A stretch of DNA of 64,000 nucleotides from an uncultured Bacteroidales bacterium (GTDB lineage Bacteria > Bacteroidota > Bacteroidia > Bacteroidales > VadinHA17): positions 6,275 through 70,274 of the forward strand of contig CAVRBS010000011.1 of assembly GCA_963719235.1 (NCBI GenBank), given 5' to 3'. This document shows positions 3,415 through 36,743 of the stretch, in pieces; positions within the stretch are counted from its first letter, which is position 1; every line of letters starts with the position of its first letter. Below the pieces are notes generated by a model. That model was not told where the DNA came from and did not search any database. It saw nothing but the letters and a program-made list of their open reading frames with translations. Both the position numbers and the translations under genes were made by a program.

Positions 3415-3416
3415 GG

Positions 3417-3893
3417 CTACTTCCCTCCTGTCATTACTTTTGATGCATCTTCCACAGCATCGATGATACGCATATGTGCTCCGCACCTGCACAGGTTGTC
3501 TTCAAGGCCTTCGATGATCTCCTGTCTCGTTGGTGAATGGTTGTTGTTAAGCAAAGCGACAGCCGTCAGGATCATTCCGGGTGTGCAGTAACCGCATTGC
3601 AGGGCATCATGGTCCGCAAAGGCCTGCTGAAGAGGATGCAGCTTGCCGTCTTCTGCAAGGCCTTCAATGGTAATGACACTCTTGCCGGCCACATCAGCGA
3701 CAGCAACCGTGCATGACCTTACCGCCTCGTTATCAATCAGAACCGTACAGGTTCCGCAAAACCCTATCCCGCAGCCGTACTTTGTTCCTGTTAGACCGAA
3801 GTGGTCTCTGAGAACCCAGAGAAGGATCCTGTTCGGGTCAGTGACCAGTTCAGTTTCCTTGTTGTTCAGTTTGAACCTGATTGTCTCTTCCAT
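3417..3893 (-). CDS. (2Fe-2S)-binding small subunit of the molybdo-oxidoreductase
   Basis: Two 2Fe-2S cysteine motifs are present (CGIGFCGTC and QCGYCTPG...CRCG). The stop abuts the start of the Mo subunit. Confidence 0.9.
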   Translation of the reverse strand: MEETIRFKLNNKETELVTDPNRILLWVLRDHFGLTGTKYGCGIGFCGTCTVLIDNEAVRSCTVAVADVAGKSVITIEGLAEDGKLHPLQQAFADHDALQCGYCTPGMILTAVALLNNNHSPTRQEIIEGLEDNLCRCGAHMRIIDAVEDASKVMTGGK

Positions 3894-20640: not shown

Positions 20641-22866
20641 TCATTTCGGACCGGGAGGACAATATGTCTTAAGATAATTGGTATAAAGTGTCTGGAGGTG
20701 TTTTCTTGTACCATCACCTTCCGAAATACCATGGGTACGGTTCGGGTAGGGCATGATCTGAAAGTGCCTGTTGTATTTTATGAGCTCGTTCACCAACATT
20801 TCAGCATTTTGATAATGAACATTGTCGTCGCCGGTTCCGTGGATATACAACAAATTCCCTGTCAGGTTGCTGGCATAGGTGATGGGAGAACCTTTTGTAT
20901 ATGGCTCAATATCTTCCTGCGGAAGGCCAAGATAGCGCTCCTGGTAGATGTTGTCATAAGTAAGCAGGTTAGCCACAGGTGCAATCGCAATGCCTGTCCT
21001 GTAGATCTCAGGATACTGAAACAACAGGCCAAGGGTTGCACTTCCTCCGCCGCTCCAGCCCCAGACAGCAACTCTTTCAGAATCGACAAACTCCCATTTT
21101 AATATCTCTTTTGCCGCCATAGCCTGGTCTCGGATGTTGATCTGGCCAATCTGTTTGTAAATGGACTTCCTCCATGCTCTCCCCTTGGGAGCAGGCGTCC
21201 CTCGATTATCGACTGAAACATAGATGTACCCGTCTTCAGACATGTTTCCTGAATACAGATTGTTACTGCTTACACCGTAGACATCTGATACGGTAGTGCC
21301 CCCGGGTTCAGTGTAGACAAAAAATACAATCGGGTATTTCCTGCCGGAATCAAAATTTTTCGGCTTCACAACCCAACCGTCCATTTCAACACTGTCGGAT
21401 GTCACAACCTTAAAAAACTCAGTTGTGGGGGGTGTTATAAGCTTATCCAGCCTCGCAATAATACTTTCCTTTTCATTCAGCGGTTTGTGATCAGGCAGTG
21501 AGACCAGTTCCTGAGACGGCCTGGTAAAGTGATTTGAAAAAGTGTGTGTGGCAAATCTCCCACCCGGGGATATGGAGTATTCATGTGTTCCCATGAGTGT
21601 GCCAGGGCTCAGCACTTCTGGATTTCCAGTGCCATCAAGCCTTGCGCGGTAGAGATATTTCTGTGTGGCATTGTCGGGCGAAGCGGTAAAATATACAGCA
21701 CCACCTGTCTGATCGACTCCCTTGAAGTCAATGATATCAAAATCACAATTGGTTATCTTCGTTTCTTCTCCGTTTTCAAGTGAGATCTTATACAGCTGTC
21801 TCCAGCCGCTTTTTTCGGATATCCAAAGTATGCTTTTGCCATTATCCAACCATGTATAGTCATTGGTGAAGTCGATAGCATATGGATTTTTTGTATAATT
21901 TACATCTAACCAGGCTTCGTCAGTTTCCTCACTGATTAATAACGGATTGCCGGTCTGCGTATCGCAGACAAAGAGTTTACTGCAGTTCTGTTGCCTGTTA
22001 AGCTGGTTTATCAGAAGCTCTCCTGTAGAGGGGATAAACTCTGCCCTTATGATATAGTTCTGATCCGGCTTGCCGGGGATTTTCATCCAGACGGTTTTGC
22101 CGTCAGAAATATTAATAATACCTACTTTACAGGAAGAAGGATTTTCGCCCGCAACCGGGTATTCAATCGGAACCGGCCGGGGATAAATCGAATCAGTATT
22201 GTTAATCATGTAAAATTTTTTGATTGAACTTGCATCTAGCTGCCAGTATGCAATCGACTTGCTGTCGGGACTCCATCTGAAACCGTCCCTGCAATAAAAC
22301 TCTTCTTCATAGACCCAGTCGAACGTTCCGTTAATCAGTGTAACTGAACCGTCGGTGGTAAGAGCCTTCATCCGCGACTTCTTAAGGTCTTCCACATAAA
22401 TATTATTACCGCTGACGTAGGCAACCGATCTGCCGTCAGGAGAAAATTTGGCGAACATCAGTGAAGAAGGCGGAAGTGTTTTTCCCAGTTGGTTCAGTTC
22501 TCCGGTCTTCATATCCAGGACCCAGTAATCGCCTTTTGTATTCACCCTCCAGACCTTTATTGTATTGGTGAACAATAGAACCTTCCGCTGATCATCAGAA
22601 AATGCAAAGTAACTGACCTCCAGCGGACCGGAGCTCCCGTCGGGGACAAACTGTTTTTTCGAAATTATTGTGTCTGTCTCATCACCCGGAAGAGTGTGTC
22701 TTATGATCTCATTATTTACCAGCTGGAAATAAGAATTGCCATCATCAGACCATGTAATTCCCTTGCGCTGGGCACTGAGGTTGAGCGAAATAATAAGTAT
22801 TAATATTGAAAATAAGAGAGTTTTGAAACCTGATCTTTTTTGCAGGAGGCTTACGGTTGCGTACAT
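20641..22866 (-). CDS. Dipeptidyl-peptidase IV (S9B prolyl oligopeptidase family)
   Basis: Own start and signal MYATVSLLQKRSGFKTLLFSILILIISLNLSAQ. DPPIV N-terminal propeller region. Catalytic triad context WGWSGGGS, GTGDDNVH, NRTHGI. Confidence 0.85.
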   Translation of the reverse strand: MYATVSLLQKRSGFKTLLFSILILIISLNLSAQRKGITWSDDGNSYFQLVNNEIIRHTLPGDETDTIISKKQFVPDGSSGPLEVSYFAFSDDQRKVLLFTNTIKVWRVNTKGDYWVLDMKTGELNQLGKTLPPSSLMFAKFSPDGRSVAYVSGNNIYVEDLKKSRMKALTTDGSVTLINGTFDWVYEEEFYCRDGFRWSPDSKSIAYWQLDASSIKKFYMINNTDSIYPRPVPIEYPVAGENPSSCKVGIINISDGKTVWMKIPGKPDQNYIIRAEFIPSTGELLINQLNRQQNCSKLFVCDTQTGNPLLISEETDEAWLDVNYTKNPYAIDFTNDYTWLDNGKSILWISEKSGWRQLYKISLENGEETKITNCDFDIIDFKGVDQTGGAVYFTASPDNATQKYLYRARLDGTGNPEVLSPGTLMGTHEYSISPGGRFATHTFSNHFTRPSQELVSLPDHKPLNEKESIIARLDKLITPPTTEFFKVVTSDSVEMDGWVVKPKNFDSGRKYPIVFFVYTEPGGTTVSDVYGVSSNNLYSGNMSEDGYIYVSVDNRGTPAPKGRAWRKSIYKQIGQINIRDQAMAAKEILKWEFVDSERVAVWGWSGGGSATLGLLFQYPEIYRTGIAIAPVANLLTYDNIYQERYLGLPQEDIEPYTKGSPITYASNLTGNLLYIHGTGDDNVHYQNAEMLVNELIKYNRHFQIMPYPNRTHGISEGDGTRKHLQTLYTNYLKTYCPPGPK

Positions 22867-22910
22867 CTTAATCTGGTGTTTTATTGCAGGATAAAAGTAA
22901 AAAATATAGT

Positions 22911-23652
22911 TCAGAATGTAAATCCGGCGACAAGAAACATCTGCTCCGAATTCAGGATTGAATATCAGCTGCCCGGTCACGGGTATGCTGAAGCGGTCAG
23001 TTATTACGATATCTTTTGAAACTTCAAGTCCGATATTGCAGACATTGAAGGCAGCTTCATCCGTCTCAGGATCATATGTATGCCATCCGTTGCCGGCTCC
23101 CATGAATACCCTGAAATAATCAAACGAGATGCCTGCTTCGAAATACATATCTCCTCCAAGGGATCCGGCACCACCTGCTTCGTTGATTACATAATCAGCT
23201 TCCAGACTTACATGCTCTCCCGAATAGTTAAGGTTGATTTCGAATGCATGGCTACCCGTTTCTGCAGTGTAGTCAAAATACTCTAATTCCGGGAAGTAGT
23301 AATCCTGAAAACCGATCGTAAAACCTGCAGGGAGATCAAGAGAAAAGTACAGGTCAACCTCCTCATAATCACTAAAATTGGTTGTCCCCCATGCTCCTGC
23401 AGTGAATGGTCCTGCTGAAAATTCAATCACCGGCTGAACATGCGGGCCGGTGCCCTGTTTTGTCCCCCTCCAGATATAGCTAGTTAGAAAGTCAGCCCCG
23501 ACGTTCCATTGAGAAGCGCGTTCCGGTGTCTGGGCAGACAGGTTCATATTAACCGTTGCCACCATCAAAAAAAGAAAGCTACAGAAAAGGTTTAAGTCCG
23601 CTTTTCCTAAATTCCGCCGATGGCGGCTTGCCAGGTGTTTTTTATAAATCAA
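22911..23652 (-). CDS. Small outer-membrane barrel, TorF/Gcw_chp-like putative porin; a frameshift fuses it to the DPP-IV ORF
   Basis: SYIWRGTKQG motif near the N-terminus. After a frame switch at about 22946-22956, the alternative frame reads NSEQMFLVAGFTF-stop (TGA 22911-22913), a typical barrel C-terminus. Confidence 0.55.
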
Positions 23653-23660
23653 AATCAGGG

Positions 23661-24891
23661 TTAGAAACTTTTTCTCAGCTGGATATAAATTCTCTGAAAG
23701 GTATTATTCTGTTCAAAGGTTCCCTCATAATTTGCAGAAAATGATAGTTTCTCAAAGACATGCCAGTAGAGGTTCAGCTCTCCTATATGCTGAAGAAGAT
23801 CAATCTCGTTTTCCGGAATCCGGTTGTCCACCAGCCGGTACCCTATACCGGACTGGAACTTTCCTCCTGCAAAGTCCTTTAAAAGGCTCAGCCCTGCAAT
23901 CGAACTGTTAATATGACTTGTTTCCAGGTAGGTGCCTGATAGTGTGGCCGAAAAATTCAGTCCTCCGATATTGCTGTAAGTATAATAACCGCTCAGGCTT
24001 CTGGAGGGAAAAGGATCACTCTTCAGAAATCTGTACCCTGCATGAACGCCGACAGCCATATTCCCAAGAATCCGCCAGTTGCAGGATAACCTGTAACCTT
24101 GTCTCATTCCCTCCTCCAGTATCCTGTCAGTATACGTTTTGTAGGTTTCATAATATACCACGTTTTTCCTGGCATCATAAGAACCACTGAATGATAATTT
24201 TCCTGAAATTCTGTAAGATAGTGAAAGGTACAATCCTGAAAGGTCGAATGTGCTCTGGGGGACGTCATTAACGATGCTGAACAGGTCCATTTCAACAGTG
24301 CTGAAGAAATTCAAATTCTTAATCAGGTTGTTTGAATGCTGAAAATAAATAAATCTCCTGTCAGTCTTGAAATCATTTGTCTGTTCAACATAGGCTATTG
24401 AACTCTCAGTGCGCTTTCCCGGGCTTTTTGTGCTATAAGCCACGTATGCACCATACTGAAAAAGTTTCGGATTAAAGCTATAATTTTGATAATCAGGCCT
24501 TGATCCGGCCAGAACACCAACAGTAAAGTTATTTATGGATTTCTCAAACTGAATTCCATCGCGTTGCTCCCATGCTTGCTATCCGGGTATTTATCCTTCG
24601 CCCGAGACTGAAGCTTGTGGTTTCGTTCAGGTCATATCTGACTGCGAGATTATATATCTTGAGTGCACTGAAAAGATCGTCCTGTACCTCCTGCCATTCT
24701 CCCGCTTTATGTCTGAATGACGCATAGGTTTCGAAGGAAAACCCGGATCCGCCAATTTTCGGGGCATTTAATGACAATGTATACCTGAAACGCTGGATAT
24801 CAGGCACATCAGTGTCAGAGAAATCAGTATAGGAATTCAGCGAGATACTCCCCCATACCTTTTGTTTTTTTTCAGCTGCTTTTATGTTCAC
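23661..24891 (-). CDS. Outer-membrane beta-barrel (about 410 aa) encoded directly downstream of the multiheme cytochromes; one frameshift
   Basis: ORFs 24544..24891 and 23661..24443 join after a frame switch near 24560-24575 (the lower frame stays open upstream: AWEQRDGIQFEKSINNF...). Alternating strand pattern, C-terminal ...YIQLRKSF. No signal peptide of its own. Confidence 0.6.
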
Positions 24892-24894
24892 GGT

Positions 24895-25272
24895 TTACTG
24901 AATCAGATTTAGTCTCCTGTTGCCGGGAGGCATCAGCTGATAACAACAGGCTGCAAAATTTTCGGTTTCCGGTTTGTCAGTCCTGATCCGGGCAATTATT
25001 ATATGATCTACAGGAACCGGATGATCAGATACAGAACTGCACAAACAAGAGACAGATGATAAGCTGTTTACAATCAGGGCAGGAACCAGACTATCCCCTG
25101 CCGGGATATAGAGTGTATCGCCTGCAGATATTCCTTCACAGGACTTGAATTTTACATAAATATTCTGAGAGCTCACAAATGAAACCTTCCCAACCAGGTT
25201 TTCAGTTACTGTTTGTCCTTGTAGCCCTGTAAATAAAAAAAGACACCACAATATTAATGTTACTTTTTTCAT
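24895..25272 (-). CDS. Secreted small beta-rich domain protein; probably the N-terminal part (signal peptide plus plug-like domain) of the barrel below
   Basis: Start MKKVTLILWCLFLFTGLQGQ lies one nucleotide after the cytochrome stop. It is in the same frame as 24544..24891, separated only by a single TAA (24892-24894). Confidence 0.5.
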   Translation of the reverse strand: MKKVTLILWCLFLFTGLQGQTVTENLVGKVSFVSSQNIYVKFKSCEGISAGDTLYIPAGDSLVPALIVNSLSSVSCLCSSVSDHPVPVDHIIIARIRTDKPETENFAACCYQLMPPGNRRLNLIQ

Positions 25273-25273
25273 C

Positions 25274-26308
25274 TCACTTTCTGTCGTCAGCCACGCCTGT
25301 CGGATGACAATTGAGACACGCTGCGCTTGTATATGAATAACCGCTTTCCTCATTATGTTTGCTGTCCATAGAGGCTTTGTTATGCTCGTGGCAGCTCAGG
25401 CATGTAAACTGAGAATAATCTGAAGGACTCGGATGGCAGTCATTACACGATGCCCATGTCCCCTTGTGCTTTCCGGAATATATCGGGAATGACTGGCTGT
25501 CATGCTCGGTAAATGATGCCGGCACCCAACCAGGGCTCAGCGTATGGCAGGTAGTGCAGGTTGTGGGGAAGCCCATGGTTGAGTGCGCCGGATTCGTCGT
25601 TGCCAGATAATCATCCTGATGGCATGAATAGCAATCCGGGTTTGCGTCAGAATAACTGCCGGTGACATGACACTCAGCACATTCGGGCGTGGAGTGACCC
25701 TCCGTCAGTGGAAAGAAGCCATGATCAAATCCTGCGCCGGTCCACTGAAAGGCATTAACGGGATGACAGGCAGAGCAATCTTCCTGGAAACCGGCCTGAA
25801 CATGGTTTGGCTGTGTGGTGGCCGTGTAATCCTGCCTGTGACAGTCAATGCAATTAACTCCGATGACATCAAACCGAACAAGACTTTCCGAGAGGTGGCA
25901 GTCCGTACAGTCAGCCGTACGATGCGCTCCCAGCAAAGGGAAACGGCTTAGCTGATGGATCCCGGTAATGTTGGTCACAAGCCAGCTGTCAGTGGAATGA
26001 CACCTGGCACAATCTGACCCGACAGTTTCCTGGTGAATGTCGGTATGGCAATCATTGCAATCAGTCTTTGCTTCTTTGAATACCAGCGTTGGATGACAAA
26101 GTCTGCAATCTGTTTTTGTATGCTGCCCGGTGAGCGGTAACTTTGTAGTACCGTGATCAAATGAATATATCGTTTTATCAAGGTGCCACCCCTCCGGGCT
26201 ATGGCAGATGCTGCAGCTGAGCTTGAAATCCTCGCCGTGCGGATGACCATCTCTCTGTCTGAGAAACAGGAAGAGGCAGCAGATTACTATAAATGACAGG
26301 ATTCGCAT
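25274..26308 (-). CDS. Multiheme cytochrome c, 13 CxxCH motifs
   Basis: 13 CxxCH sites were counted in 344 aa. There is an N-terminal hydrophobic signal or anchor. Repeated F-D-H-x3-5-(F/L)-P-L-x-G-x-H-x4-5-C-x2-C-H modules resemble cytochrome c7/c3. Confidence 0.9.
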   Translation of the reverse strand: MRILSFIVICCLFLFLRQRDGHPHGEDFKLSCSICHSPEGWHLDKTIYSFDHGTTKLPLTGQHTKTDCRLCHPTLVFKEAKTDCNDCHTDIHQETVGSDCARCHSTDSWLVTNITGIHQLSRFPLLGAHRTADCTDCHLSESLVRFDVIGVNCIDCHRQDYTATTQPNHVQAGFQEDCSACHPVNAFQWTGAGFDHGFFPLTEGHSTPECAECHVTGSYSDANPDCYSCHQDDYLATTNPAHSTMGFPTTCTTCHTLSPGWVPASFTEHDSQSFPIYSGKHKGTWASCNDCHPSPSDYSQFTCLSCHEHNKASMDSKHNEESGYSYTSAACLNCHPTGVADDRK

Positions 26309-27888
26309 CTGAAATCTTTGATTTTATAAGTAATGTAAGTTACTGAACCTTCACTGTGCGGTTTATGACATTCCGCACAGGGAACATTAATATGCTTTCC
26401 GTCAAGCCTGAAAGCAGTTTTATTGTGATCGAACCCTGAAGCCTTCCAGGTCTCTGTATTATGGCAATCATTGCAGTTTGTTGCACCGTTCTTCTCAAAC
26501 TGCCCATGATGGTTATCAATATGGCAAGTGGTACAGCTGGCTGATAGTCCCGAAAATTTCTGTTGCACTGCTCCGGCGTGGTCGGGTCGGAAGTGACAGG
26601 CTCTGCATTCCTGCCTTGTATGTGCTCCTGTCAGGCTGTAGTTTGTCTTTGAATGGTCAAACGATATATCAGGCCACCTGTTTTCATTATGACAGAACCG
26701 GCAATCTGCCGCAGGATAGTATTTTGTTTGAATAAAATCCTTGTGTATATCAGTGTGGCAGTCTGAACAGCCTGTGCCGATCTCCCTGAAACTCCATTTT
26801 TCCTGTTTCTTATGACATTCCAGGCACGGGGTTGCCGAATGAGATCCCTTTAAGGGGAACAGGCCTGCATTATGCTGTGATACAGTATAGGTGAAATAAT
26901 TAAACCCTTTAACCGTGTGGCACTGTGAACAGTCAGGAGAGATTCCGTTCCTGGTAAACTGACTCTTATGGTAATCAACATGACAATCTGTGCACCTGTC
27001 ATGCTTAAGGGGATCGGTAGTTTTGCCCTTATGACAATCCTTGCACCCGACTGCCAGGTGTTTCTCCTCAAGTTTAAAATTTGTCTTGTTATGATCAAAC
27101 CTCGAGAGTCCTCCTGATACCGTAAGAAATGAATCCTCAGTATGGCACTGACGGCAATTCTGGCCGAACTGGTTCTGATGTGGGTCTTTGTGACAACTTG
27201 TGCAGTTGCTAAAGGGCACACCCCTGAATTCCTGGAAGGCCTTGCCGTTTATTGTCTCTTTCCTGTGGCATTTCAGGCAATCGACGGTTTTATGTTTCCC
27301 GGTAAGCGGGAACCGTGAAGTGCTGTGGTTAAACTTCGAAGCCGGTTTAAAGGAATCAGTGCTATGGCAATCGAGACATGAGACAGGCAGGGTCTGCTGA
27401 TGGTAGTCAGTATGGCAGCTCAGGCATTTTTCATCCAGGCCGAGCCAGGTGTTCTTTTTTGATTTGAGTTTTTGATCTGAAATGTACCTGGAATTGTGGC
27501 AATCAGGGCATTCCTTTGCCGCATGAGCGCCTGATAAGATGTATCCGGTAAGAGAGTGGTTGAAATTTTCGGCATTGAACCATATGAGTTTAGCGTCCTT
27601 TCCGTTATGTTCACTATGGCAGGTGAAACAGGAATTTTCCTTTACCTCTGCGGATGAATGGTATCCTTTCCCTGCAGCTATTCTGGATTGGATCTCAGTA
27701 TGACAGACAAGGCATTTTGCATCTGAAACCTTATTGCCAAGCACATGGCACTGGGTACAGTTTGAAATGCCTTCGAGGTTTGAATGATAATTTGATAAAG
27801 CACCTGGTGAAAGCTGTGCGGACAAGCGGATGCCGGCAAGGAAGTAAAGGATGAAAATTCCTCTGAATTTTATTGTTGCACGATCCAT
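26287..27888 (-). CDS. Multiheme cytochrome c, 20 CxxCH motifs
   Basis: 20 CxxCH sites were counted. Signal peptide MDRATIKFRGIFILYFLAGIRLSAQ (the ORF opens at 27921). There are six F(N/D)H..T.F.L.G.H....C..CH modules. It overlaps the next cytochrome gene by 22 nt. Confidence 0.9.
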   Translation of the reverse strand: MDRATIKFRGIFILYFLAGIRLSAQLSPGALSNYHSNLEGISNCTQCHVLGNKVSDAKCLVCHTEIQSRIAAGKGYHSSAEVKENSCFTCHSEHNGKDAKLIWFNAENFNHSLTGYILSGAHAAKECPDCHNSRYISDQKLKSKKNTWLGLDEKCLSCHTDYHQQTLPVSCLDCHSTDSFKPASKFNHSTSRFPLTGKHKTVDCLKCHRKETINGKAFQEFRGVPFSNCTSCHKDPHQNQFGQNCRQCHTEDSFLTVSGGLSRFDHNKTNFKLEEKHLAVGCKDCHKGKTTDPLKHDRCTDCHVDYHKSQFTRNGISPDCSQCHTVKGFNYFTYTVSQHNAGLFPLKGSHSATPCLECHKKQEKWSFREIGTGCSDCHTDIHKDFIQTKYYPAADCRFCHNENRWPDISFDHSKTNYSLTGAHTRQECRACHFRPDHAGAVQQKFSGLSASCTTCHIDNHHGQFEKNGATNCNDCHNTETWKASGFDHNKTAFRLDGKHINVPCAECHKPHSEGSVTYITYKIKDFRCESCHL

Positions 27889-27958
27889 AATGCACTCACT
27901 TTGATCAGACAAAAACCCCAATAAACCTCCCTTTTAGGGTATGGGTGTTTAGCCAAAT

Positions 27959-29305
27959 TTAGTGTTTTAAAACAGTTTCCCCAAACTTCCTTGTGATTTT
28001 GATCCCGGCTTTTTCGAGAAACTGTGTGGGAAGCTCACCACCGGCAAAAATATATACCAGATCATTCTCAAGTTTAACCGGTTCTCCTCCGTCAGCAGTC
28101 ATAATATAAACATGCTCATCCTCAATGGAAACAAGATTACTCTTGAGGAGCAACTTGATCTTACCTGCCTCAATTGCCTCATTTATTGCGATGCTGTTTT
28201 TTGGTTTTATGCGGGCAAACACTTCATTCCTGTAAGAAAGAGTAACGTTATTCTGATCGGACAGGAGCAGTGCAGATTCAATTGCTAAATCACCACCACC
28301 TACTACAACAATATTTTTCCCGGATAAATCTTCCGGCTCAAGCAACCGGTATGCAACTTTCTCCCTGTCCTCCCCGGGGATATTAAGTTTACGGGGAGTT
28401 CCCCGCCTTCCTATAGCAAGCAGGACGGCCGCTGCAGAAAACACCTCGCCTCGCAGGGTTGTAACCTTAAATATATCGCCATCAGAAACTACAAATTCAA
28501 CCTTTGAATTCTCATTAACCTTGATATTGTTTTGCTTCAGCGCAGTCTGCCACAGGTCGAGCAACTCTGCTTTAGTGGTCTCAAACAGTTTCACCTTTCC
28601 GTACAAAGGAAGGTCCATCGGTGATGTCATCACAATTTTCTTTCTCGGAAATGAATAAACTGCTCCTCCAAGAGTATCCTGGTCCACCAACAGAAGATTC
28701 AGATTAAACTTCCTTGCAGTTAGTGACCCCGAGATGCCTGCCGGTCCTGATCCTATTATAATCAGATCATATGTTGCCGAATGATTTTTCCTCAAAGATC
28801 TGGCTATATTTTCGACCGCCTGTCTGCCCTGTTCGACTGCATTCCTGATAAGGCCCATGCCACCAAGTTCTCCGGCGATAAATATCCCGGGAACATTTGT
28901 CTCAAAGTTGCTGTTGATATGAGGAAGTTCCACTCCCCGCTTTTCAGTGCCGATTCGCAGCGTAATAGCTTCTGTCGGACAGGCATGAAAACAAGCGCCG
29001 TGCCCGACACATTGCGAAGCATTTATAATTGTTGCTTTACCGTTATAGATCCCTATTATATCCTTTTCGGGGCATGCAGCAACACAGGCTCCTGTACCGA
29101 TACAGGTATTTACATCAATAAACGGATGAAGTGAAACAGGTTCATGCAAGCCTTCCTCCTGTGCCTTTTTAATTTTTGCCTCAACTTTTCCTGATTCTTT
29201 TTTCTTCCTGAAAAGGTAGAACCAGACCACTGCAACACAAAGTATGGCAACAAGCGAGTAGGTAATGATTTTTTCAAGAAGCATTTCCATGGTTAAAAAA
29301 TCCAT
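27959..29305 (-). CDS. Membrane-anchored NAD(P)/FAD-dependent oxidoreductase with an N-terminal ferredoxin-like (2x Fe-S) domain
   Basis: N-terminal TM helix followed by RKKKESGK (bulk predicted cytoplasmic). Motifs CIGTGACVAACP and CVGHGACFHACP. Two dinucleotide folds: LIIIGSGPAG and IVVVGGGDLAIE. Confidence 0.75.
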   Translation of the reverse strand: MDFLTMEMLLEKIITYSLVAILCVAVVWFYLFRKKKESGKVEAKIKKAQEEGLHEPVSLHPFIDVNTCIGTGACVAACPEKDIIGIYNGKATIINASQCVGHGACFHACPTEAITLRIGTEKRGVELPHINSNFETNVPGIFIAGELGGMGLIRNAVEQGRQAVENIARSLRKNHSATYDLIIIGSGPAGISGSLTARKFNLNLLLVDQDTLGGAVYSFPRKKIVMTSPMDLPLYGKVKLFETTKAELLDLWQTALKQNNIKVNENSKVEFVVSDGDIFKVTTLRGEVFSAAAVLLAIGRRGTPRKLNIPGEDREKVAYRLLEPEDLSGKNIVVVGGGDLAIESALLLSDQNNVTLSYRNEVFARIKPKNSIAINEAIEAGKIKLLLKSNLVSIEDEHVYIMTADGGEPVKLENDLVYIFAGGELPTQFLEKAGIKITRKFGETVLKH

Positions 29306-30163
29306 CTGTAGCCAAACAATATGGTTACACCCACATGAATGACCATAATTAACAACATTACCAGGGCAAAAGGCAGGTGAGCAACATGCCAGTATTTGAA
29401 AAGATTCTTCATACTGTCAAGGCGCTCTATTCTCCTGCTCAATTTGATATCTGCCTTTACAAGAGAAATAATCTTTCTGTAATCATTCCCCTGAAGGTTA
29501 TTCCTTTTCAATTCTCTCCGCACAGTGTGAATTGACTTCAGGTCATCCGTATAGTTTCGTATTAAACTGACAAGTAAGGACCGGGATGATGAGACAGTTT
29601 TCTTTTCAACTGATTCTACTATTTTTCTGTAAGCTTCCTCTTCAAGTCCACTGGAGTTTTTCAAGATATCCGTAAGGTTGCTTTTCATGGCGCGGACTTC
29701 GGTCAGGTCCAGCTCTCTGCCCTCGATAGACCTTGGTATCTGAATATAAATAAACCTGCCGGCAATTCCGCTGAGAAAGACAGCTACCATGCTCCAGAAG
29801 CTGACTGCCACCAATCCCCCGAATTTGAAAGCGGTATGGAACAATATCAATACCGGTCCCAGGGTGCAGAGGAAAATGTGGAACTCAAGCCAATGTTTAA
29901 CCAATCCTGTTCTTGACATAAAACGATACCTTTTTCGTGCCATGTAGATGGCTACGCCAATGATTATTAAGAGAGTACCAAATATGCCCAGCCCGTGACC
30001 CAATATACCGCTCGGCTTCAGAGCATCGTGGTCTGAACTGATATGCTCTCTCCTCAAGTCCTGTCTTATAGTATTCCAAACCATTGAACAGAAGAAGTAC
30101 AAAGGCAAATCCAACGATCACAACCATCATACCCAGGAATATTCTGTGAATTGTTTTTGGCAT
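29293..30163 (-). CDS. Polytopic membrane protein with two H-x13-H transmembrane motifs (candidate di-heme b-type electron carrier); probable frameshift near 30043-30055
   Basis: EFHIFLCTLGPVLILFH and HLPFALVMLLIMVIH lie in separate predicted TM helices. ORF 29897..30163 supplies a plausible first TM helix (MPKTIHRIFLGMMVVIVGFAFVLLLF) in another frame. Confidence 0.5.
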
Positions 30164-30227
30164 TATTTATTACCGTTAATTGTCAATGTCACTGCAAATA
30201 TAGTTTACTATGCTTTATTTGCATCTG

Positions 30228-32480
30228 TCAGAACCTCCCGCTCAGGCGTATGCTATAATTCCTCTGGGGCTGGATATCACCAGGGCGACCCATATATTCA
30301 GTGTTCGTGATGTTCTTGACCGCTATGGAGACTTTCAGGGCTTCACTGATCCTGTAACCAATATTCCCGTCCATCAGGAAATAGCCCGTATTGTTTTCCT
30401 GCCAGTAATCGTAGAATCCCGGAAGGATCTCCTCTCTTGTGGCCGGATTCAGGAAAACGTCATCGATATTCAGGGTCTTTGACCTGGCATAAAGATCGAG
30501 ACCCGATTCAATCCTGTGCCATGTCGAAATAAAACTCATCTTGGCGGAATGTTTTCTCCTGTATTTCAGGTAAATATCAGTGTTCTGATTAGTATAGGAA
30601 TTGAATTCAACCGGATATATAAATGTATACCCGCCAGTCAATGTTGCCTCAAGCTCTCCAAACGATCTTTTCAGAATTACCTCCAGTTCGCCGCCGTAGA
30701 CCCTCGATTGCTCAACATTTGTGGCTTTAAAACCAACATCGGAAATGCCTGTTGACGGATCCTGATGAATACCAAAAACATACTCGATCATATCAATATT
30801 CTGCGAGAAAAAGAGCGACAGATCGCCCTCTCCCATCATTTCTCCAAACATTACTCCCTGTTTTATCCCTAGTTCTGAGCTCCATCCTGATTCCGCCCTT
30901 ACATAAGGGCTGGGAAAGATCCTCACCGAACCGAGGGTCGTCGAGGCATACTTCTCAGCGATGGACGGATAGCGGTAACCCTCGCCGAAAGAAGCCCTGA
31001 TAAAAGTATATTCAGCGGCCTGGAAATTTATGCCTGCCCTGAAGACCGGGACGATACCGTCGGGTTCGCCATCGAGAGAATTTTGTTCAATGCGCAGCCC
31101 GCCGATGACTTTAAGCCTGCTTACCGGTCTTACCTCAAGTTGCGTAAACCCGGCAACATTAAGCCCGCGATGATCACCATAGAAGTTTGATGTTATATTG
31201 CTCCAGTTTTCAGAAATGCCAGCAGTCAGATTCAAAAAACCGGTAATTTTGTAATAGAACAGATATTCTCCGTACACGGAGGAAGAGCTGGCATCATTAT
31301 TTGTTCTGACAGGAAACCTGTTGGCGGAATACTGATATCGCATCCGGAAATCATGTTTAATCTTGCCTTTACCCCCAAGAGTTATAAAAGGATCGGCCGT
31401 AAAATAATATCCATGCAGGCTCGATACTGTTGATGTATCCTGCTTCAGGGCTCCGGTAGTGGCATCCTCCCATAGTATGAAGTCAGTTTTATATGTTGTC
31501 CCAGCATTCAGGTTCAACCCGTATTTCAGACCTTCGGTCCTGCTGCTGTGATGCTTCAGCCTGAGGCTTATTCTTCCGAGGTTTTCGTCGTTGAATTTTC
31601 TGTATCCCCTGTCAGCGGTCAGGTTGACACCCACGCCTATATCATTCTTCCCGAATTTCTGCAGGTGAGAGAATGAGGCATTGGCAAAGACCCTTGGTGT
31701 GTCCCACCATTTCCAGTCTTCATTCGACGGGCCGCCAAAGACCCCGCCTTCAGCAAAGAATTGGGTCACCGGAATATTTGACGCGTCTGCCGTCCTGAAG
31801 TTAATGACCCCGTTGAGGGCGGAAGATCCGTACAGCACTGAGGAAGCTCCCTTGATTATCTCCACCTGCGACAGGTTCTCCAGCGGCAGGAAGTTCCATT
31901 TTATACCTCCGGCGTCAGCCGACATCATCGGCAGGCCGTCTATGAGAGCCAGCACACGGCTGCCAACACCATAGCTGTACCCGCTGCCACCTCTTATTGA
32001 CGCCTGCCCGTCAAGTACCTCGATACCCGGAGTTTTATTTATCAGTTCCTGGGCATCAGTAATGTGGCTGCGTGTAATCAGGTCGGATTTGATAACCTCC
32101 ATCGATACAGTCAGCTCTGATTCCTTCTGCTCCATCCTGTCAGCACTCACTACTATCTGGTCAATTAACTGCGACTCAGGCTCCATCATTACATTCATTT
32201 TCAGCGTCTCCCCGGCAATGATGTCAAGTATCTCCGTATGTGACCTGTAACCAACGTACTTGAATTCAACAGAGAGCTTGCCGGGACTGGCTGCAAATGA
32301 GAAAAACCCATTTTCATCAGTGCTGGTGCCTGTTCCTCTGCCAAATATGACATGAGCCCCGGCAAGAGGTTCATGGCTGTCTTTGTCTGATACCCTGCCG
32401 CTTACCAGGCTCTGAGCATTTAATACCGGTGAGATTAAGAAGACCAGAGCGGCAACTGTCAAAAAACGCCGGAGCATCAT
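30228..32480 (-). CDS. TonB-dependent receptor with a carboxypeptidase-regulatory-like N-terminal domain
   Basis: Signal peptide. GRVSDKDSHEPLAGAHV CarbopepD_reg-like domain. Plug (IEVLDGQASIRGGSG...IIKGASSVLYGSSALNGVINF). C-terminal ...IRLSGRF. Confidence 0.9.
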   Translation of the reverse strand: MMLRRFLTVAALVFLISPVLNAQSLVSGRVSDKDSHEPLAGAHVIFGRGTGTSTDENGFFSFAASPGKLSVEFKYVGYRSHTEILDIIAGETLKMNVMMEPESQLIDQIVVSADRMEQKESELTVSMEVIKSDLITRSHITDAQELINKTPGIEVLDGQASIRGGSGYSYGVGSRVLALIDGLPMMSADAGGIKWNFLPLENLSQVEIIKGASSVLYGSSALNGVINFRTADASNIPVTQFFAEGGVFGGPSNEDWKWWDTPRVFANASFSHLQKFGKNDIGVGVNLTADRGYRKFNDENLGRISLRLKHHSSRTEGLKYGLNLNAGTTYKTDFILWEDATTGALKQDTSTVSSLHGYYFTADPFITLGGKGKIKHDFRMRYQYSANRFPVRTNNDASSSSVYGEYLFYYKITGFLNLTAGISENWSNITSNFYGDHRGLNVAGFTQLEVRPVSRLKVIGGLRIEQNSLDGEPDGIVPVFRAGINFQAAEYTFIRASFGEGYRYPSIAEKYASTTLGSVRIFPSPYVRAESGWSSELGIKQGVMFGEMMGEGDLSLFFSQNIDMIEYVFGIHQDPSTGISDVGFKATNVEQSRVYGGELEVILKRSFGELEATLTGGYTFIYPVEFNSYTNQNTDIYLKYRRKHSAKMSFISTWHRIESGLDLYARSKTLNIDDVFLNPATREEILPGFYDYWQENNTGYFLMDGNIGYRISEALKVSIAVKNITNTEYMGRPGDIQPQRNYSIRLSGRF

Positions 32481-32878
32481 TTCGGTTTAAACGTCATCCT
32501 GATATTCTTAGTGCCCTCCAGGGTCGGATAAGGGAAAGTAACCTTCAGAGATGTTTTTGTGAGCTCAACAATGTGAGTTGTCAGGGTAAAAGTAAGTTCA
32601 GGTGAACTGATTGCAATGTTGGTCTCGTTATCAACAAACCTCCATGTCCCGGTGTATTGGCCAAAGGTCCCCGTGCCATCCACATTGAATACAACATCGC
32701 CTTTGAATTTCTCAAGAAGCTCACCCGGGTCACTTGCATCAATGCCATCGGCAAGAAGGCTGTCACTCGTCCATACGTGTGATGTAAGCAAGTCAAAGCT
32801 TTCCGAAGTCTTGTCTTTATTGCATGCAGCTGCAAAGACCAGTCCCGCAAGCAGCAACCATATAACAATATTTTTCAT
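32477..32878 (-). CDS. Lipocalin-like small lipoprotein
   Basis: Lipobox LVFAAC. 133-aa beta-rich protein. A 4-nt ATGA overlap with the receptor start implies translational coupling. Confidence 0.5.
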   Translation of the reverse strand: MKNIVIWLLLAGLVFAAACNKDKTSESFDLLTSHVWTSDSLLADGIDASDPGELLEKFKGDVVFNVDGTGTFGQYTGTWRFVDNETNIAISSPELTFTLTTHIVELTKTSLKVTFPYPTLEGTKNIRMTFKPK

Positions 32879-33056: not shown

Positions 33057-34692
33057 ATGAGTGTACAGTATTCGATAAGTCCCAACGGTGAAAAATTTGC
33101 CCTGCCGAAACCTGAGGATTATAAAACTGAGTTTGAGAAAATAAGCAAACGTGTTAAAGCGGAGCGCGCCAAAGGCCGCGAGATAGTCGTGGTCATGGGT
33201 GTAGGTTTCGTAGGGGCTGTCATGGCGGCTATCGTGGCCGATACTGTTGATTCAAAAGGCAAACCCTCGAAATTTGTCATTGGGATGCAGCGTCCCAGCC
33301 TGCGCAGCTTCTGGAAGATACCCATGCTCAACCGCGGTGTCTCCCCTGTCAAGGCTGAAGACCCGGAGGTCGACCCGATGATTGAACGGTGCGTTAAGTA
33401 CCAAGAAGACCCTGATGGCCACCTATACATACGAGGTCCTTAAGCTGGCCGACATTGTTGTGGTAGACGTGCAGTGCGACTATATCAAGGAAGAACTGGG
33501 CAACGTGCGTGCCGGACAGACCGATATGGCAGCACTCGAGGCATCTCTGGGGGTTATAGCAGACCATATCCGGCCTGAAGCGCTGGTGCTCATTGAGACC
33601 ACTGTGGCTCCGGGAACCACCGAGCAGGTGGCCTACCCGATCATGAAGAAGGCATTCACAAAACGCGGCATCAAATCAGATCCGCTGCTGGCACACAGCT
33701 ACGAGAGGGTAATGCCCGGACGCAATTATGTAGCAAGCATACGCGATTTCTGGAGGGTGTGCAGCGGCATCAACGAAGAGGCAAGGAAACGTGTCGTGAA
33801 GTTCCTCAATGAAGTGCTCAACACAAAAAAATTTCCTCTCACGGTCATGGACAGGCCAATCGAGTCAGAAACGGCCAAGATCGTCGAGAACAGCTACCGT
33901 GCCACCATCCTCGCTTTCCTCGATGAATGGAGCCTCTTTGCCGAGCGTAACGGTGTCGACCTGATCAAGGTTATCAAGGCAATCAAGATGAGACCCACCC
34001 ACAGCAACATGATATTTCCCGGGCCCGGCATTGGCGGCTACTGCCTCCCGAAAGACGGAGGACTGGGTGTCTGGGCATATAAACATATTCTTGGCTTCGA
34101 GGATGACATCTTTAAAATCACTCCAATGGCCATAGATATTAACGACACCCGTGGCCTGCATGTGGGCCAACTGACCCGTGACGCTCTGCGCAACATGGGC
34201 AAGCCTATTGCAGCCACAGACGTTCTGGTACTGGGAGCAGCATACCGTGAGGATGTCGGAGACACACGCTACAGCGGCTCCGAGATAGTGATACGCAAGC
34301 TGGCAGAGATGGGTGCCGAGATACGCGTGCATGACCCCTATGTTGAACACTGGTGGGAGTTCGAAGAGCAGGACAGCTATCCGGGCGTTGGCCAGAGCAA
34401 GTCACAGTTCTTCCGCAACCAGGAGAAGCTGAAGGAGATAAGGATTGAACAGAACCTGAATAAGGCTCTCAAGGGAGCTGAGGCAGTAATCCTGGCCGTA
34501 CCTCATTCAGCCTACATGGACCTTGATCCTGACAAGGTTGTGAAGACCATAGGACAGCCGGCTGCCATAATAGACTGCTTCGGTATCCTGACCGATGACA
34601 AGATCCGCCGTTACTTCCAGCTTGGATGCGAAGTAAAGGGACTGGGAAGAGGACACATCCAGAGAATTAAGGAAGAGACACGTAAAGCCTGA
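33057..34692 (+). CDS. Nucleotide-sugar dehydrogenase (UDP-glucose/GDP-mannose dehydrogenase family); one frameshift
   Basis: N-terminal VVVMGVGFVGAVMA NAD fold and catalytic GPGIGGYCLPKD. ORFs 33057..33443 and 33382..34692 are colinear, with a frame switch near 33390-33400. Confidence 0.8.
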
Positions 34693-34733: not shown

Positions 34734-35591
34734 ATGAAAGACAAAATGACCGGGTTATTGGACGATTTCAGTTCCGGAAAGGTAGACAGAAGGACATTCA
34801 TGAAGAAGCTTACCCTTGTTACCGGGGGAACAGCCGCCGCTGTCATCTTCTTACCTGATCTTAACAGGGCAGATGCGTCACGCCCTATGCGCGGAAAATT
34901 TGAGTTGATAAATGAATTCATCACCTACCCCGGCGCTACCGGTGAGATGAAGGCTTATCTGTCGATGCCGGAGGGTAAAAAGAAACTGCCCGGAGTGATA
35001 GTGATCCATGAAAACAGGGGGCTGGTACCGCACATCCAGGATGTGAACAGGCGGATGGCGATGGAAGGGTTTATCTCGCTGGCACCTGATGCCCTCTCCC
35101 CACTGGGAGGCACACCGGAAGATCAGGATAAGGGGCGTGAGATGATGGGCCAGCTCAACCGTGAAGAGACGGTAAAGAATTTCGTCGCTGCAGTGAAATA
35201 CCTCAAGACTCATCCGCGGTCAACAGGCAGGGTGGGTTGTACAGGCTTCTGCTGGGGAGGCGCCATGACCAACCAGGTGGCGGTAAATGCACCTGATCTC
35301 AACGCCGCAGTGCCCTATTACGGTTCAACCCCTGCACCGGACGATGTGCCAAAAATCAAAGCCTCAGTAATGGCACACTATGCAGGCAATGACGAACGTA
35401 TTAATGCCGGAATACCGGCATTTGAGGAGGCGCTGAAAAAGGCAGGCATAGATTACCAGATCTTTATCTATGAGGGTGCGGAACATTCCTTTAACAACGA
35501 TACCAACCCTCCTCCGAGATACAACAAGGAGGCAGCCAGTCTTGCATGGGGCAGGACTATTGGCTTTTTCAGGGAGAAACTCGGAGGTTAG
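34734..35591 (+). CDS. Dienelactone hydrolase-family protein with a Tat signal
   Basis: DRRTFMKKLTLVTGGTAAA twin-arginine leader. DLH core GVIVIHENRGL...GCTGFCWGG. Confidence 0.8.
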   Translation: MKDKMTGLLDDFSSGKVDRRTFMKKLTLVTGGTAAAVIFLPDLNRADASRPMRGKFELINEFITYPGATGEMKAYLSMPEGKKKLPGVIVIHENRGLVPHIQDVNRRMAMEGFISLAPDALSPLGGTPEDQDKGREMMGQLNREETVKNFVAAVKYLKTHPRSTGRVGCTGFCWGGAMTNQVAVNAPDLNAAVPYYGSTPAPDDVPKIKASVMAHYAGNDERINAGIPAFEEALKKAGIDYQIFIYEGAEHSFNNDTNPPPRYNKEAASLAWGRTIGFFREKLGG

Positions 35592-35609: not shown

Positions 35610-36743
35610 TTACTTCGTCCATAAACGGGCAACCTCATCGATGAAAGGCCGGCAGTGGTTGAAAAAATATCTGTAGCCTTCGCACAGGTTATTTAATCCA
35701 TCTTCACCTGTCGGGGCAGTGATGAACCTGTTTTTCGGACATTCACCGTTGCACATATCCAGCACCTCGCATTCAAGGCAATAACGCGGAAGGGAAGCTC
35801 GCTTGTTTTGCCCGAAGGTTTTCTGCCGCGGGTCATCAAGCATGTCTGCCAGAGATGTTTCCCCTATGTTACCTATCCGGTGCTCTGCCTTCACATAGTG
35901 ATCGCATGAGTAGAAGTCGCCATTCATCCCGACAACAGGAACTCCACCGCAAACAGGCTTAAAAATGCAAAGCGTATGACCCTGGCTGAATGCGGTACGC
36001 AGGGCTTCCTCAAAGATCTGTACCTTCACCTTACCGATATCCTCTTCGATCCACTCATCAAATATCGCCACAAGAAATTTACCAAAATCCATAGGTCTGA
36101 CACTTAACGGTGTTGCTTTGCGGGAGCCTTTGCCAGCTTCTTCAACCATTGGCAGAAACGTTATGTATGAGGAACCAAAGCCCTTGAAGAACCGGTATAA
36201 CTCAAGAGGTACAGAAACGTTGGAATTGCTTACGACGCACAGGAATTCGTGAGGCACATTGTACCTTTTAAGTATTTCAAGACCTCTCATCACCTCCTCA
36301 AAAGTCCCGTTGCCACCGCCACGGGTCCTGCATATATTATGATAGTGCTCAGGCCCGTCAAGACTGATGCCAACATAAAAATTCTCGTCAAGGAAGAATT
36401 TCCCCCACTCATCAGTGATCAGCGTTGCATTTGTCTGAATCCCGTTAAGGATAACTCTTCCTGAAGGTTTGTGCCGCCTCTGGATATCAACGGCTCTCCT
36501 GTAGAAGTCAAGTCCGGCCAGTGTGGGTTCACCCCCATGCCATGAAAAAATGATTTCTTTCCCTGTTGAAGCCTCAATATGTTGACGGATATAGAGATCC
36601 AGAACCTCATCACTCATACAACCGTCTCCGGAAGCAGAATAAAGATTCCTTTTATCAAGATAATAGCAATAAGAACAGTTCAGGTTACATCTTGCGCCGA
36701 CGGGTTTGGCAAAAATCTGGAATTCACGGAAGTCTGAGTTCAT
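35610..36743 (-). CDS. Anaerobic sulfatase-maturating enzyme-like radical SAM/SPASM protein
   Basis: FAKPVGARCNLNCSYCYY (Cx3Cx2C) plus C-terminal SPASM cysteine clusters (CGG...SCDH, CLECEVLDMCNGECPKNR). Confidence 0.8.
   Translation of the reverse strand: MNSDFREFQIFAKPVGARCNLNCSYCYYLDKRNLYSASGDGCMSDEVLDLYIRQHIEASTGKEIIFSWHGGEPTLAGLDFYRRAVDIQRRHKPSGRVILNGIQTNATLITDEWGKFFLDENFYVGISLDGPEHYHNICRTRGGGNGTFEEVMRGLEILKRYNVPHEFLCVVSNSNVSVPLELYRFFKGFGSSYITFLPMVEEAGKGSRKATPLSVRPMDFGKFLVAIFDEWIEEDIGKVKVQIFEEALRTAFSQGHTLCIFKPVCGGVPVVGMNGDFYSCDHYVKAEHRIGNIGETSLADMLDDPRQKTFGQNKRASLPRYCLECEVLDMCNGECPKNRFITAPTGEDGLNNLCEGYRYFFNHCRPFIDEVARLWTK

Follow-up and report, generated by a model that had tools for sequence, protein, structure and literature searches.

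A conserved five-gene cassette of Bacteroidota as a candidate conduit for electrons from cytoplasmic NAD(P)H across the cell envelope

A 64,000-nucleotide stretch of DNA from an uncultured Bacteroidales bacterium (contig CAVRBS010000011.1 of assembly GCA_963719235.1, positions 6,275 to 70,274; the whole stretch is referred to below as the window) carries a tight cluster of co-directional minus-strand genes at 23661-32878, as read by listing and translation of its open reading frames (ORFs). Five of these genes form a cassette that recurs, in the same order, in other genomes: a membrane protein with two pairs of His residues (the bis-His protein), a membrane-anchored iron-sulfur (Fe-S) flavoprotein, two multihaem c-type cytochromes (cytA and cytB) and an outer-membrane β-barrel. 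We judge the case about evenly balanced that this cassette forms a trans-envelope conduit that draws its electrons straight from NAD(P)H in the cytoplasm. It is also possible, and is put forward tentatively, that it represents a widespread, quinone-independent trans-envelope pathway, respiratory or electron-dumping, of Bacteroidota and related bacteria of the FCB group. Its start would be an unclassified two-protein NAD(P)H:cytochrome c oxidoreductase that resembles NADPH oxidase (NOX) but is made of a thioredoxin-reductase (TrxR)-type Fe-S flavoprotein and a new di-haem b family; this would directly charge a 20-haem wire of fixed length across the periplasm, followed by an expandable cytochrome of 13 to ~60 haems threaded through a new barrel family.

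The proposed path is the simplest in which each conserved part has a use. The membrane-anchored flavoprotein would take up electrons from NAD(P)H at its FAD, on the cytoplasmic face, and pass them to its own two atypical Fe-S clusters. They would then reach two putative stacked b-haems between transmembrane helices (TM) 3 and 5 of the bis-His protein, with His95 and His262 near the cytoplasm and His109 and His276 near the periplasm. From the b-haems they would enter the periplasmic 20-haem cytA, a wire of roughly periplasm-spanning length, and move on to cytB, whose 13-haem N-terminal core would lie in or at the ~22-strand barrel and whose C-terminal extension, variable between lineages (up to ~45 further haems), would reach the acceptor, which could be Fe(III) or Mn(IV) minerals, humics or a partner cell. 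Because this flow would be electrogenic and without proton pumping, the pathway would be a redox-balancing sink rather than a coupling site, in which heterotrophs that ferment or are limited by oxygen probably re-oxidize their NAD(P)H. We infer cofactor binding, each electron-transfer step, the direction of flow, the crossing of the outer membrane and the acceptor from gene content, motifs, the conservation of order and overlaps, and predicted topology and folds.

Bacteroidota are among the most abundant heterotrophs of sediments, soils, lakes, digesters and activated sludge, and are not counted as electroactive. If the proposal is true, fermenters could use minerals, humics or partner cells as an outlet for the electrons of NAD(P)H, and carbon turnover together with the reduction of iron, manganese and humics in anoxic habitats would be assigned differently. 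It would also add a new entry to extracellular electron transfer that bypasses the quinone pool, with a logic like that of eukaryote-type NADPH oxidases, and two families without a Pfam model, the bis-His protein and the barrel, would gain a testable function.

Distribution and gene order of the cassette

Carriers were identified in one genome per GTDB species with a profile built from 8 sequences of the membrane protein, and at least 568 species were found. The best 80 of these carriers formed the synteny sample, in which six-frame ORFs were searched with the proteins of L001, a related 1.4-Mb contig of a metagenome-assembled genome (MAG). L001, which is the same contig as locus L004, has the same cluster and the same flanking genes as the window, at ~80% amino-acid identity. 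All 80 genomes are MAGs, with no isolate among them, and their labels include Bacteroidales, Rikenellaceae, Lentimicrobiaceae, Prolixibacteraceae, Marinilabiliales, Saprospiraceae, Lewinellaceae, Cytophagales, Cyclobacteriaceae, Vicingus and one "Chlorobiota".

The order membrane protein-flavoprotein-cytA-cytB-barrel, on one strand, is exact in 47 of the 80 loci. In ten more there are two cytB genes, or a cytB follows the barrel, or the barrel is split, and most of the remaining loci are cut by contig ends. The junctions recur as well: the genes of the membrane protein and the flavoprotein overlap by 13 nt in 36 loci, those of cytA and cytB by 22 or 19 nt in 59 loci, and cytB lies directly upstream of the barrel gene with near-zero gaps in 58 loci. 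The recurrence of order and overlaps is far beyond chance. A preliminary description of the window had read the whole cluster as a complete conduit from the cytoplasm to the outer membrane; synteny across phylum-level distances and predicted topology support this for the five core genes, whereas a TonB-dependent receptor (TBDR) and a lipoprotein that had been counted in are not part of the unit.

A remote branch of high GC content (27% identity), found in a Candidatus Eisenbacteria MAG and on another contig, has retained the same neighbours: a Fer4 plus Pyr_redox protein, cytochromes that range from 425 to 1692 aa, and a protein of 538 aa without annotation. Clustering of all flanking ORFs of the 80 loci revealed no further family in more than 20 loci. 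Nor did the same clustering, together with Pfam and NCBIfam, reveal a conserved quinol dehydrogenase nearby, the CymA, ImcH, CbcL, NrfD, NapC and NirT types included, which extends to the 80 loci what had first been remarked for the window.

The -7 promoter consensus of Bacteroidota is TAnnTTTG. Within 150 nt 5' of the membrane-protein gene this motif was found in 50 of 76 loci, compared with 0 of 76 coding control windows, and the matches cluster 30-70 nt 5' of the gene. The presence of the motif just 5' of the membrane-protein gene in so many loci suggests that the cassette usually begins its own transcription unit there. A scan for sigma-70 promoters and terminators was uninformative for this phylum.

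Individual loci show variations. A cytB-like gene precedes cytA in L057 and L060, and in L075 the other strand carries an additional flavoprotein gene. In L086 (1-8800), a distant relative, the cassette adjoins Alternative Complex III (ACIII)-like genes (c7-type ActA, Fe-S ActB, NrfD and ActD) and also a gene for cytochrome oxidase subunit II. A family of ~245-aa lipoproteins, without a convincing Pfam match, is absent from the window and present in 20 of the 80 loci, where it mostly adjoins the cassette, either just after the barrel or divergently just before the membrane-protein gene (L020, L025, L029, L031, L032, L041, L042, L045, L049, L050, L058, L064, L066, L069, L079, L080, L082 and L083; e.g. 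L079:18000-18752). A relationship between this lipoprotein and the N-terminal domain of the barrel protein was considered and rejected (hhalign probability 1.4%).

The predicted inner-membrane input module

The flavoprotein combines a TM helix at its N-terminus with a dicluster ferredoxin-like domain and a TrxR-type FAD/NAD(P)H domain (Pfam Fer4_10 and Pyr_redox_3/2). The window copy, first described as an FAD/NAD(P) oxidoreductase with a ferredoxin-like domain, indeed matches two Fer4 domains and Pyr_redox_3/2. Among solved structures, it comes closest to YpdA/Bdr and to ferredoxin-NADP reductases of the TrxR type (PDB 7A76, 7A7B, 2ZBW, 3AB1 and 5YGQ; E 1e-29 to 1e-14). Comparison of 75 sequences revealed two conserved Fe-S motifs, C-I-x-T/S-G-A-C-x2-A-C-P and C-I/V-G-H-G-A-C-F-H-A-C-P, at flavoprotein residues ~62-112 (window 28970-29120). 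The usual second Cys is replaced in both motifs in all 75 sequences, by Thr or Ser in the first and by an invariant His in the second; His107 is also conserved, as is Cys23 of the TM helix (93%). The motifs point to an unusual ligation, in which one cluster would be bound by three Cys and one His, and the other by three Cys with an oxygen ligand from Thr/Ser, or would be a 3Fe cluster.

Two further motifs, GxGxxG and GGGDSAxE...SYR..F.R, are invariant in the same sequences, and the latter would fit NADPH as the substrate. The flavoprotein has seven Cys, six of them in the Fe-S motifs, one in the TM helix and none in the FAD/NAD(P)H domains. A disulfide reductase of the YpdA/TrxR type was rejected because the flavodomain has no redox Cys or CxxC; judged by sequence, the protein has the TrxR-type two-Rossmann fold without CxxC and is a putative ferredoxin-NAD(P)+ reductase. 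The TM helix is followed by a basic stretch (7.0 Lys plus Arg in 18 residues) and a twin-arginine (Tat) motif occurs in 0 of the 75 sequences, so the cofactor domains should be cytoplasmic. The orientation first predicted for the flavoprotein, facing the cytoplasm, agrees with this application of the positive-inside rule.

Homologues of the bis-His protein are 289 aa long (the L001 copy begins MPK..HRIF), and the family, for which there is no Pfam model, comprises more than 7,600 near homologues and, at 50% identity and E ≤ 1e-3, 2,667 clusters. In an alignment of 39 sequences, with identity down to 27%, His109, His262 and His276 are invariant and His95 is nearly so, which gives two H-x13-H pairs, on TM3 and TM5. 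An AlphaFold2 model (pLDDT 88.6) has five TM helices and a helical insert of ~115 aa between TM4 and TM5. The N-terminus, the TM2-TM3 loop and the insert are predicted to be cytoplasmic from charge counts under the positive-inside rule. Because these counts put one His of each pair near each membrane face, the two pairs have the putative geometry of two stacked b-haems.

The only recurring weak matches of the 39 members, all below the Pfam threshold, are to families of di-haem cytochromes b: DUF4405 (16/39), Ni_hydr_CYTB (9/39) and Ferric_reduct (PF01794, 7/39, best E 5.5e-4). The protein has no PDB sequence match and no Foldseek match at E < 0.1; Foldseek matches to F-BAR and coiled-coil proteins (E > 0.1) were dismissed as spurious.

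In NADPH oxidases, ferric-reductase-domain proteins and the two-component MsrQ-Fre system, electrons travel from a cytoplasmic NAD(P)H flavoenzyme over two b-haems, held by His pairs ~13 residues apart on TM3 and TM5, to the outer face of the membrane. The cassette membrane protein has two such pairs (H95/H109 and H262/H276 in the 39 sequences). Its five TM helices and 115-aa cytoplasmic insert distinguish it from these systems, to which it is linked by sub-threshold matches to PF01794 and by no Foldseek match. The cassette dehydrogenase resembles TrxR rather than FNR and has an added Fe-S domain. The acceptors also differ: O2 or MsrP in the known systems, and a chain of c-type cytochromes in the proposed one.

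A different reading of the same two proteins takes the bis-His protein for a (mena)quinol:cytochrome c oxidoreductase, or for the anchor of a quinone reductase as in type-B succinate:quinone oxidoreductase/fumarate reductase, with the flavoprotein feeding or draining the quinone pool through it; the conduit would then depend on quinones as other porin-cytochrome systems do. The combination of FAD, Fe-S clusters and a di-haem b subunit with five TM helices parallels that of quinol:fumarate reductase, and the families behind the weak Ni_hydr_CYTB and DUF4405 matches include quinone-reactive cytochromes b. No quinone-binding family was found above threshold, however, and the tight linkage to a 20-haem cytochrome, with no other conserved partner, makes direct transfer from haem b to haem c the simpler arrangement. 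We therefore regard quinone coupling as unlikely, while still taking it seriously.

Type-B succinate:quinone and quinol:fumarate reductases (SQR/QFR) and the Hmc/Tmc complexes likewise wire a cytoplasmic flavin and/or Fe-S module through a di-haem b subunit to the periplasmic side, and in Hmc/Tmc of sulfate reducers the periplasmic partner is a multihaem cytochrome c. The inner half of the cassette is alike in module layout. It differs in that no cassette subunit has family-level homology to these complexes (HmcA is weakly matched), in having no HdrD- or NrfD-like subunit, and in its Fe-S ligand sets.

The multihaem cytochromes and the barrel

The cytA protein has 20 CxxCH motifs, 44 His and one Met, and this excess of His over Met is why its ligation appears to be bis-His throughout. 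Pfam recognizes Cytochrome_C7 in seven stretches, and the CxxCH spacing indicates trihaem c7-type modules of ~75-80 aa. The Sec signal peptide is conserved and ends ...AQ|L/ISPG; in the window the true start is likely the ATG at 27888 (MDRATIKF...). Of 74 loci, 62 encode a cytA with 20 haems and nine, mostly of Saprospiraceae type, one with 23. The 23-haem loci, of Saprospiraceae, Lewinellaceae and Phaeodactylibacter type, are L027, L034, L046, L047, L053, L057, L060, L063 and L075.

Tandem trihaem c7-type modules of ~75-80 aa are also the building plan of the poly-c7 'nanowire' cytochromes of Geobacter, such as the dodecahaem GSU1996, which measures ~1 nm per haem. In both the Cytochrome_C7 stretches and the CxxCH period cytA is like GSU1996. 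The differences are that PDB searches gave no significant sequence match for the cassette cytochromes, that ligation appears to be bis-His throughout, and that the proteins, which are far longer, belong to a cassette running from membrane protein to barrel.

The cytB protein of the window has 13 CxxCH motifs and a Sec signal peptide, and is equivalent to the N-terminal ~340 aa that all longer homologues conserve. The longer homologues grow C-terminally by repeats of the same module, so that cytB ranges from 13 to 58 haems per protein, and the cytB haems summed per locus from 11 to 62, where the 11 come from a fragmented locus. Against the DmsE/MtrA decahaem profile the longer cytBs align over nearly the full length, with E down to 5e-14, which is below the cut-off. 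In the known conduits MtrA sits in MtrB; by analogy with MtrA and GSU1996, the constant haem number of cytA, set against the free growth of cytB, fits a wire limited by the width of the periplasm followed by a free distal end.

By Pfam and NCBIfam, both window cytochromes are of the Cytochrome_C7/c3 electron-transfer type, and matches to NrfB, HmcA, DmsE and ExtN are all below threshold. A catalytic multihaem enzyme (NrfA, Hao/OTR or ACIII ActA) was rejected, as the cytochromes have no family-level match to these and no catalytic haem signature, and they contain no Cx3-4CH motifs. The possibility, raised in the preliminary description, that they belong to a known enzyme family of the Nrf, Hao/OTR or ActA kind is thus set aside, the only matches being sub-threshold ones of electron-transfer type.

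The barrel gene is a single ORF of 526-580 aa in more than 50 loci (552 aa in L001), and encodes a signal peptide, an N-terminal domain of ~100 aa, a linker and the barrel. AlphaFold2 modelled the barrel part of one homologue (P0156) with a pLDDT of 84 as ~22 strands over ~400 residues, with short loops and no plug inside. Foldseek returned generic large barrels only (FimD/PapC, porins, AlgE and TBDRs), with TM-scores of at most 0.54. The L001 orthologue has no Pfam match at E ≤ 1, 51 barrels have no significant NCBIfam match, and no PDB sequence match was found. A likeness of the N-terminal domain to ExtJ was rejected (NCBIfam E 0.077, recurring in only 2 of 51 homologues).

Taken together, the outer half of the cassette resembles two-component porin-cytochrome conduits (Pcc), and the NAD(P)H-linked inner-membrane input proposed for the cassette is apparently new and quinone-independent. 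Like the conduits that have no surface lipoprotein cytochrome (MtoAB, PioAB, the two-component Pcc of Anaeromyxobacter and Kuenenia, and the 'distant' cluster of Ignavibacterium album), the cassette combines a secreted multihaem cytochrome with a large plug-less barrel (a cytB with a Sec signal beside the barrel in 58 loci), and its longer cytBs are weakly DmsE/MtrA-like. In contrast to these systems, its barrel has no detectable sequence relation and no specific fold relation to MtrB/PioB and carries the extra ~100-aa N-terminal domain, its haems are far more numerous (20, plus 13 to 58), and it brings its own inner-membrane input module. With Shewanella MtrCAB, fed by CymA, and the Geobacter Pcc/Ext conduits, fed by ImcH/CbcL/CbcBA, the cassette shares the logic of an inner-membrane entry, a periplasmic relay and a barrel-cytochrome exit. 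Unlike them, it has no quinol dehydrogenase of NapC/NirT, ImcH, CbcL or NrfD type and no outer-surface lipoprotein cytochrome of MtrC/OmcB type, and the periplasm, bridged in those systems by small diffusible cytochromes, would be bridged by one fixed 20-haem protein.

Porin-cytochrome conduits can run both ways, as in MtoAB and PioAB (for bidirectionality, see PMC8258643), and the cassette could in principle take up electrons from extracellular Fe(II), a cathode or a partner cell for the reduction of NAD(P)+ or ferredoxin. Reduction of NAD(P)+ from bis-His c-haems would, however, be uphill and against the membrane potential, the cassette has no energy-coupling subunit, and its carriers are described as heterotrophs, all of which makes the inward direction very improbable.

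Clusters of this general kind have been reported. Uncharacterized clusters of multihaem cytochrome and barrel genes were noted in a Bacteroidetes anode MAG (PMC8258643), a 'distant' Pcc cluster in Ignavibacterium album (IALB_1837-1840; Shi et al. 2014, PMC4245776), further multihaem cytochrome and barrel clusters in Ignavibacteria MAGs (PMC7399161), and giant "undescribed" cytochromes in Saprospiraceae (PMC11495043). They are likened to the cassette here by their descriptions, and may be the same system. Full-text literature searches yielded no description of a bis-His protein with an Fe-S flavoprotein as the entry module of a conduit. The initial view that the gene combination is undescribed in Bacteroidota thus holds for the input module, but not for cytochromes and barrel, of which clusters are on record (PMC8258643, PMC4245776, PMC11495043).

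Several points weigh against an outward conduit fed from NAD(P)H. The haem binding of the membrane protein is predicted from motifs, since the protein has no structural relative in the PDB, and it may hold a quinone site. The barrel has no detectable relation to MtrB/PioB in Pfam, in NCBIfam searches of 51 barrels or among the top 50 Foldseek matches, and none to OmbB by family libraries and Foldseek, the OmbB sequence itself not having been compared. Exposure of cytB outside the cell is proposed by analogy with MtrAB/MtoAB, because there is neither a surface lipoprotein cytochrome nor a signal of the type IX secretion system (T9SS): cytA and cytB have no conserved lipobox Cys at their N-termini, and a scan of four large cytB homologues detected no C-terminal domain of T9SS type. 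Many of the carriers (Saprospiraceae, Cytophagales) come from mostly aerobic groups, for which mineral respiration is less obvious, and all carriers examined are MAGs of uncultured bacteria, in which we infer every electron-transfer step. Finally, the locus of one distant relative (L084) consists of the membrane protein, the flavoprotein and cytA only, with neither cytB nor barrel, and the inner-membrane module may also act alone. At this locus (L084:1-14130) the three genes are transcribed divergently from a cluster for an NAD-linked [NiFe] hydrogenase of HoxFUYH type, which includes HypF.

The three-gene L084 locus also bears on the idea that electrons from NAD(P)H are stored in the large periplasmic cytochromes, or used there for a periplasmic reaction or for redox buffering when oxic and anoxic conditions alternate, with the barrel serving solute passage or anchoring. 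Each cytochrome carries a plain Sec signal and none for targeting to the surface, and the giant cytochromes of Saprospiraceae have been suggested to act as capacitors (PMC11495043). Such a periplasmic sink is nevertheless rather improbable in our view, as the barrel follows the cytochromes with near-zero gaps in 58 loci, and a plug-less barrel of ~22 strands together with the open-ended growth of cytB would better fit a wire threaded outward.

Genes, neighbours and reading frames in the window

The features of the cluster are listed in Table 1. Their families were assigned by Pfam and NCBIfam, and breaks in reading frame were located by tblastn against relatives.

Table 1. Positions of the cassette genes, their neighbours and the candidate promoter box in the window
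Feature	Position	Strand	Remarks
Lipoprotein ORF	32477-32878	-	133 aa, lipobox LVFAAC
TBDR ORF	30228-32480	-	750 aa
Candidate -7 promoter box, TATATTTG	30195..30202	-	TAnnTTTG match, 31 nt 5' of the membrane-protein ATG
Core gene 1, bis-His membrane protein, corrected span	29293..30163	-	start MPKTIHRIF...
Membrane-protein ORF as listed	29293-30114	-	H-x13-H at listed-ORF residues 79 and 246
Core gene 2, flavoprotein	27959-29305	-	448 aa
Core gene 3, cytA	26287-27921	-	544 aa, 20 CxxCH
Core gene 4, cytB	25274-26308	-	344 aa, 13 CxxCH
Core gene 5, outer-membrane barrel, corrected span	23661..25272	-	signal peptide, N-domain, linker and barrel
Three ORFs of the broken barrel gene	24895-25353, 24544-24891, 23661-24443	-	no family matches
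Small outer-membrane protein, downstream neighbour	22951..23652	-	~226 aa

The genes overlap by 4 nt (32477-32480), 13 nt (29293-29305) and 22 nt (26287-26308), and a single nucleotide separates the stop codon of cytB (25276-25274) from the ATG that follows (25272). On re-reading, the preliminary description proved exact in these junctions, in the co-directional minus-strand arrangement, in the counts of 20 and 13 CxxCH and in the two H-x13-H motifs of the membrane protein, and its TBDR is borne out by Pfam (CarbopepD_reg, Plug and barrel). All the ORFs in its gene list are present; the 'small domain' and the '~410-aa barrel' listed separately are, however, parts of one gene, of ~550 aa in relatives. 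Its 'lipocalin-like' label for the lipoprotein found no backing, as the window protein has no Pfam, NCBIfam or PDB match and the L001 orthologue reaches an E of only 0.17.

Several genes of the window are broken. The membrane-protein gene truly starts at 30163, and a 1-nt insertion near 30043 puts this start in another frame. The barrel gene has a frameshift at ~24561 and an in-frame stop at 24892-24894 (by tblastn), the latter of which may instead reflect two compensating shifts in the linker. Further breaks affect the C-terminus of the gene for the small outer-membrane protein (at ~22950) and a UDP-glucose dehydrogenase gene (33057-34692, broken at ~33250-33400), and unrelated genes are split likewise, namely a MoCoBD xanthine-dehydrogenase-like gene (1620-3492) and an MFS_2 transporter gene (6278-7655). 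Fragmentation of the same kind is seen in other long-read MAG loci (L018 and L059), and intact orthologues are found at 78-97% identity. Since unrelated genes and other long-read loci break alike, the indels are probably those of an error-prone, unpolished long-read assembly and not gene decay; a barrel pseudogene is disfavoured on the same grounds and by the intact orthologues. A Reg_prop/Y_Y_Y sensor gene at 44443-47311 may be split too.

Three neighbours, the TBDR, the lipoprotein and the small outer-membrane protein, lie outside the conserved cassette. Among the 80 loci, the lipoprotein and TBDR genes precede the cassette in L001/L004-L008 alone, which stand for the five species genomes closest to the window, and their 4-nt overlap indicates translational coupling. 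The plug of the TBDR is most like those of haem/B12 receptors (nearest structures PhuR, ShuA and BtuB, for the plug only), and no riboswitch or other RNA was found upstream of the gene. The small outer-membrane protein (226 aa in L001, starting 4 nt after the barrel stop) has a weak Gcw_chp match (E 0.002), with tblastn covering residues 9-214, and among the 80 loci was found only in L001 and L004-L007. In the window a C-terminal frameshift fuses it into the next ORF, which encodes a DPP-IV-like peptidase, giving an artificial ORF of 1003 aa (20641-23652).

The genes of the TBDR and the lipoprotein immediately precede the cassette in the window, as they also do in its nearest relatives, and the neighbouring TBDR had led to an alternative proposal of reductive iron, haem or siderophore acquisition. 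The haem/B12-like plug is in line with it, as are genes for MntE/FieF-like CDF (Mn/Fe efflux) proteins at most 10 kb from the cassette in nine loci (L010, L014, L019, L020, L023, L030, L052, L056 and L061; e.g. L019:1580-2488), a weak hint of metal handling. However, the TBDR and lipoprotein are missing from ~75 of the 80 loci, and with both outside the conserved unit the siderophore proposal loses its sole argument. In addition, the promoter motif separates the TBDR from the cassette, and the 33 to 82 c-haems are far above those of known assimilatory reductases. Linkage of a FoxB/PepSY_TM reductase with a TBDR was not found either: the window membrane protein and its 39 family members have no PepSY_TM/FoxB match in Pfam, and a TBDR is adjacent in L004-L008 only. 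Acquisition of this kind is hence highly improbable.

Beyond the cluster lie a dienelactone-hydrolase-family gene with a twin-arginine-like leader (RRTFMKK; 34734-35591) and a radical SAM/SPASM gene (35610-36743). The same two neighbours are present in L001, a local synteny outside the cassette.

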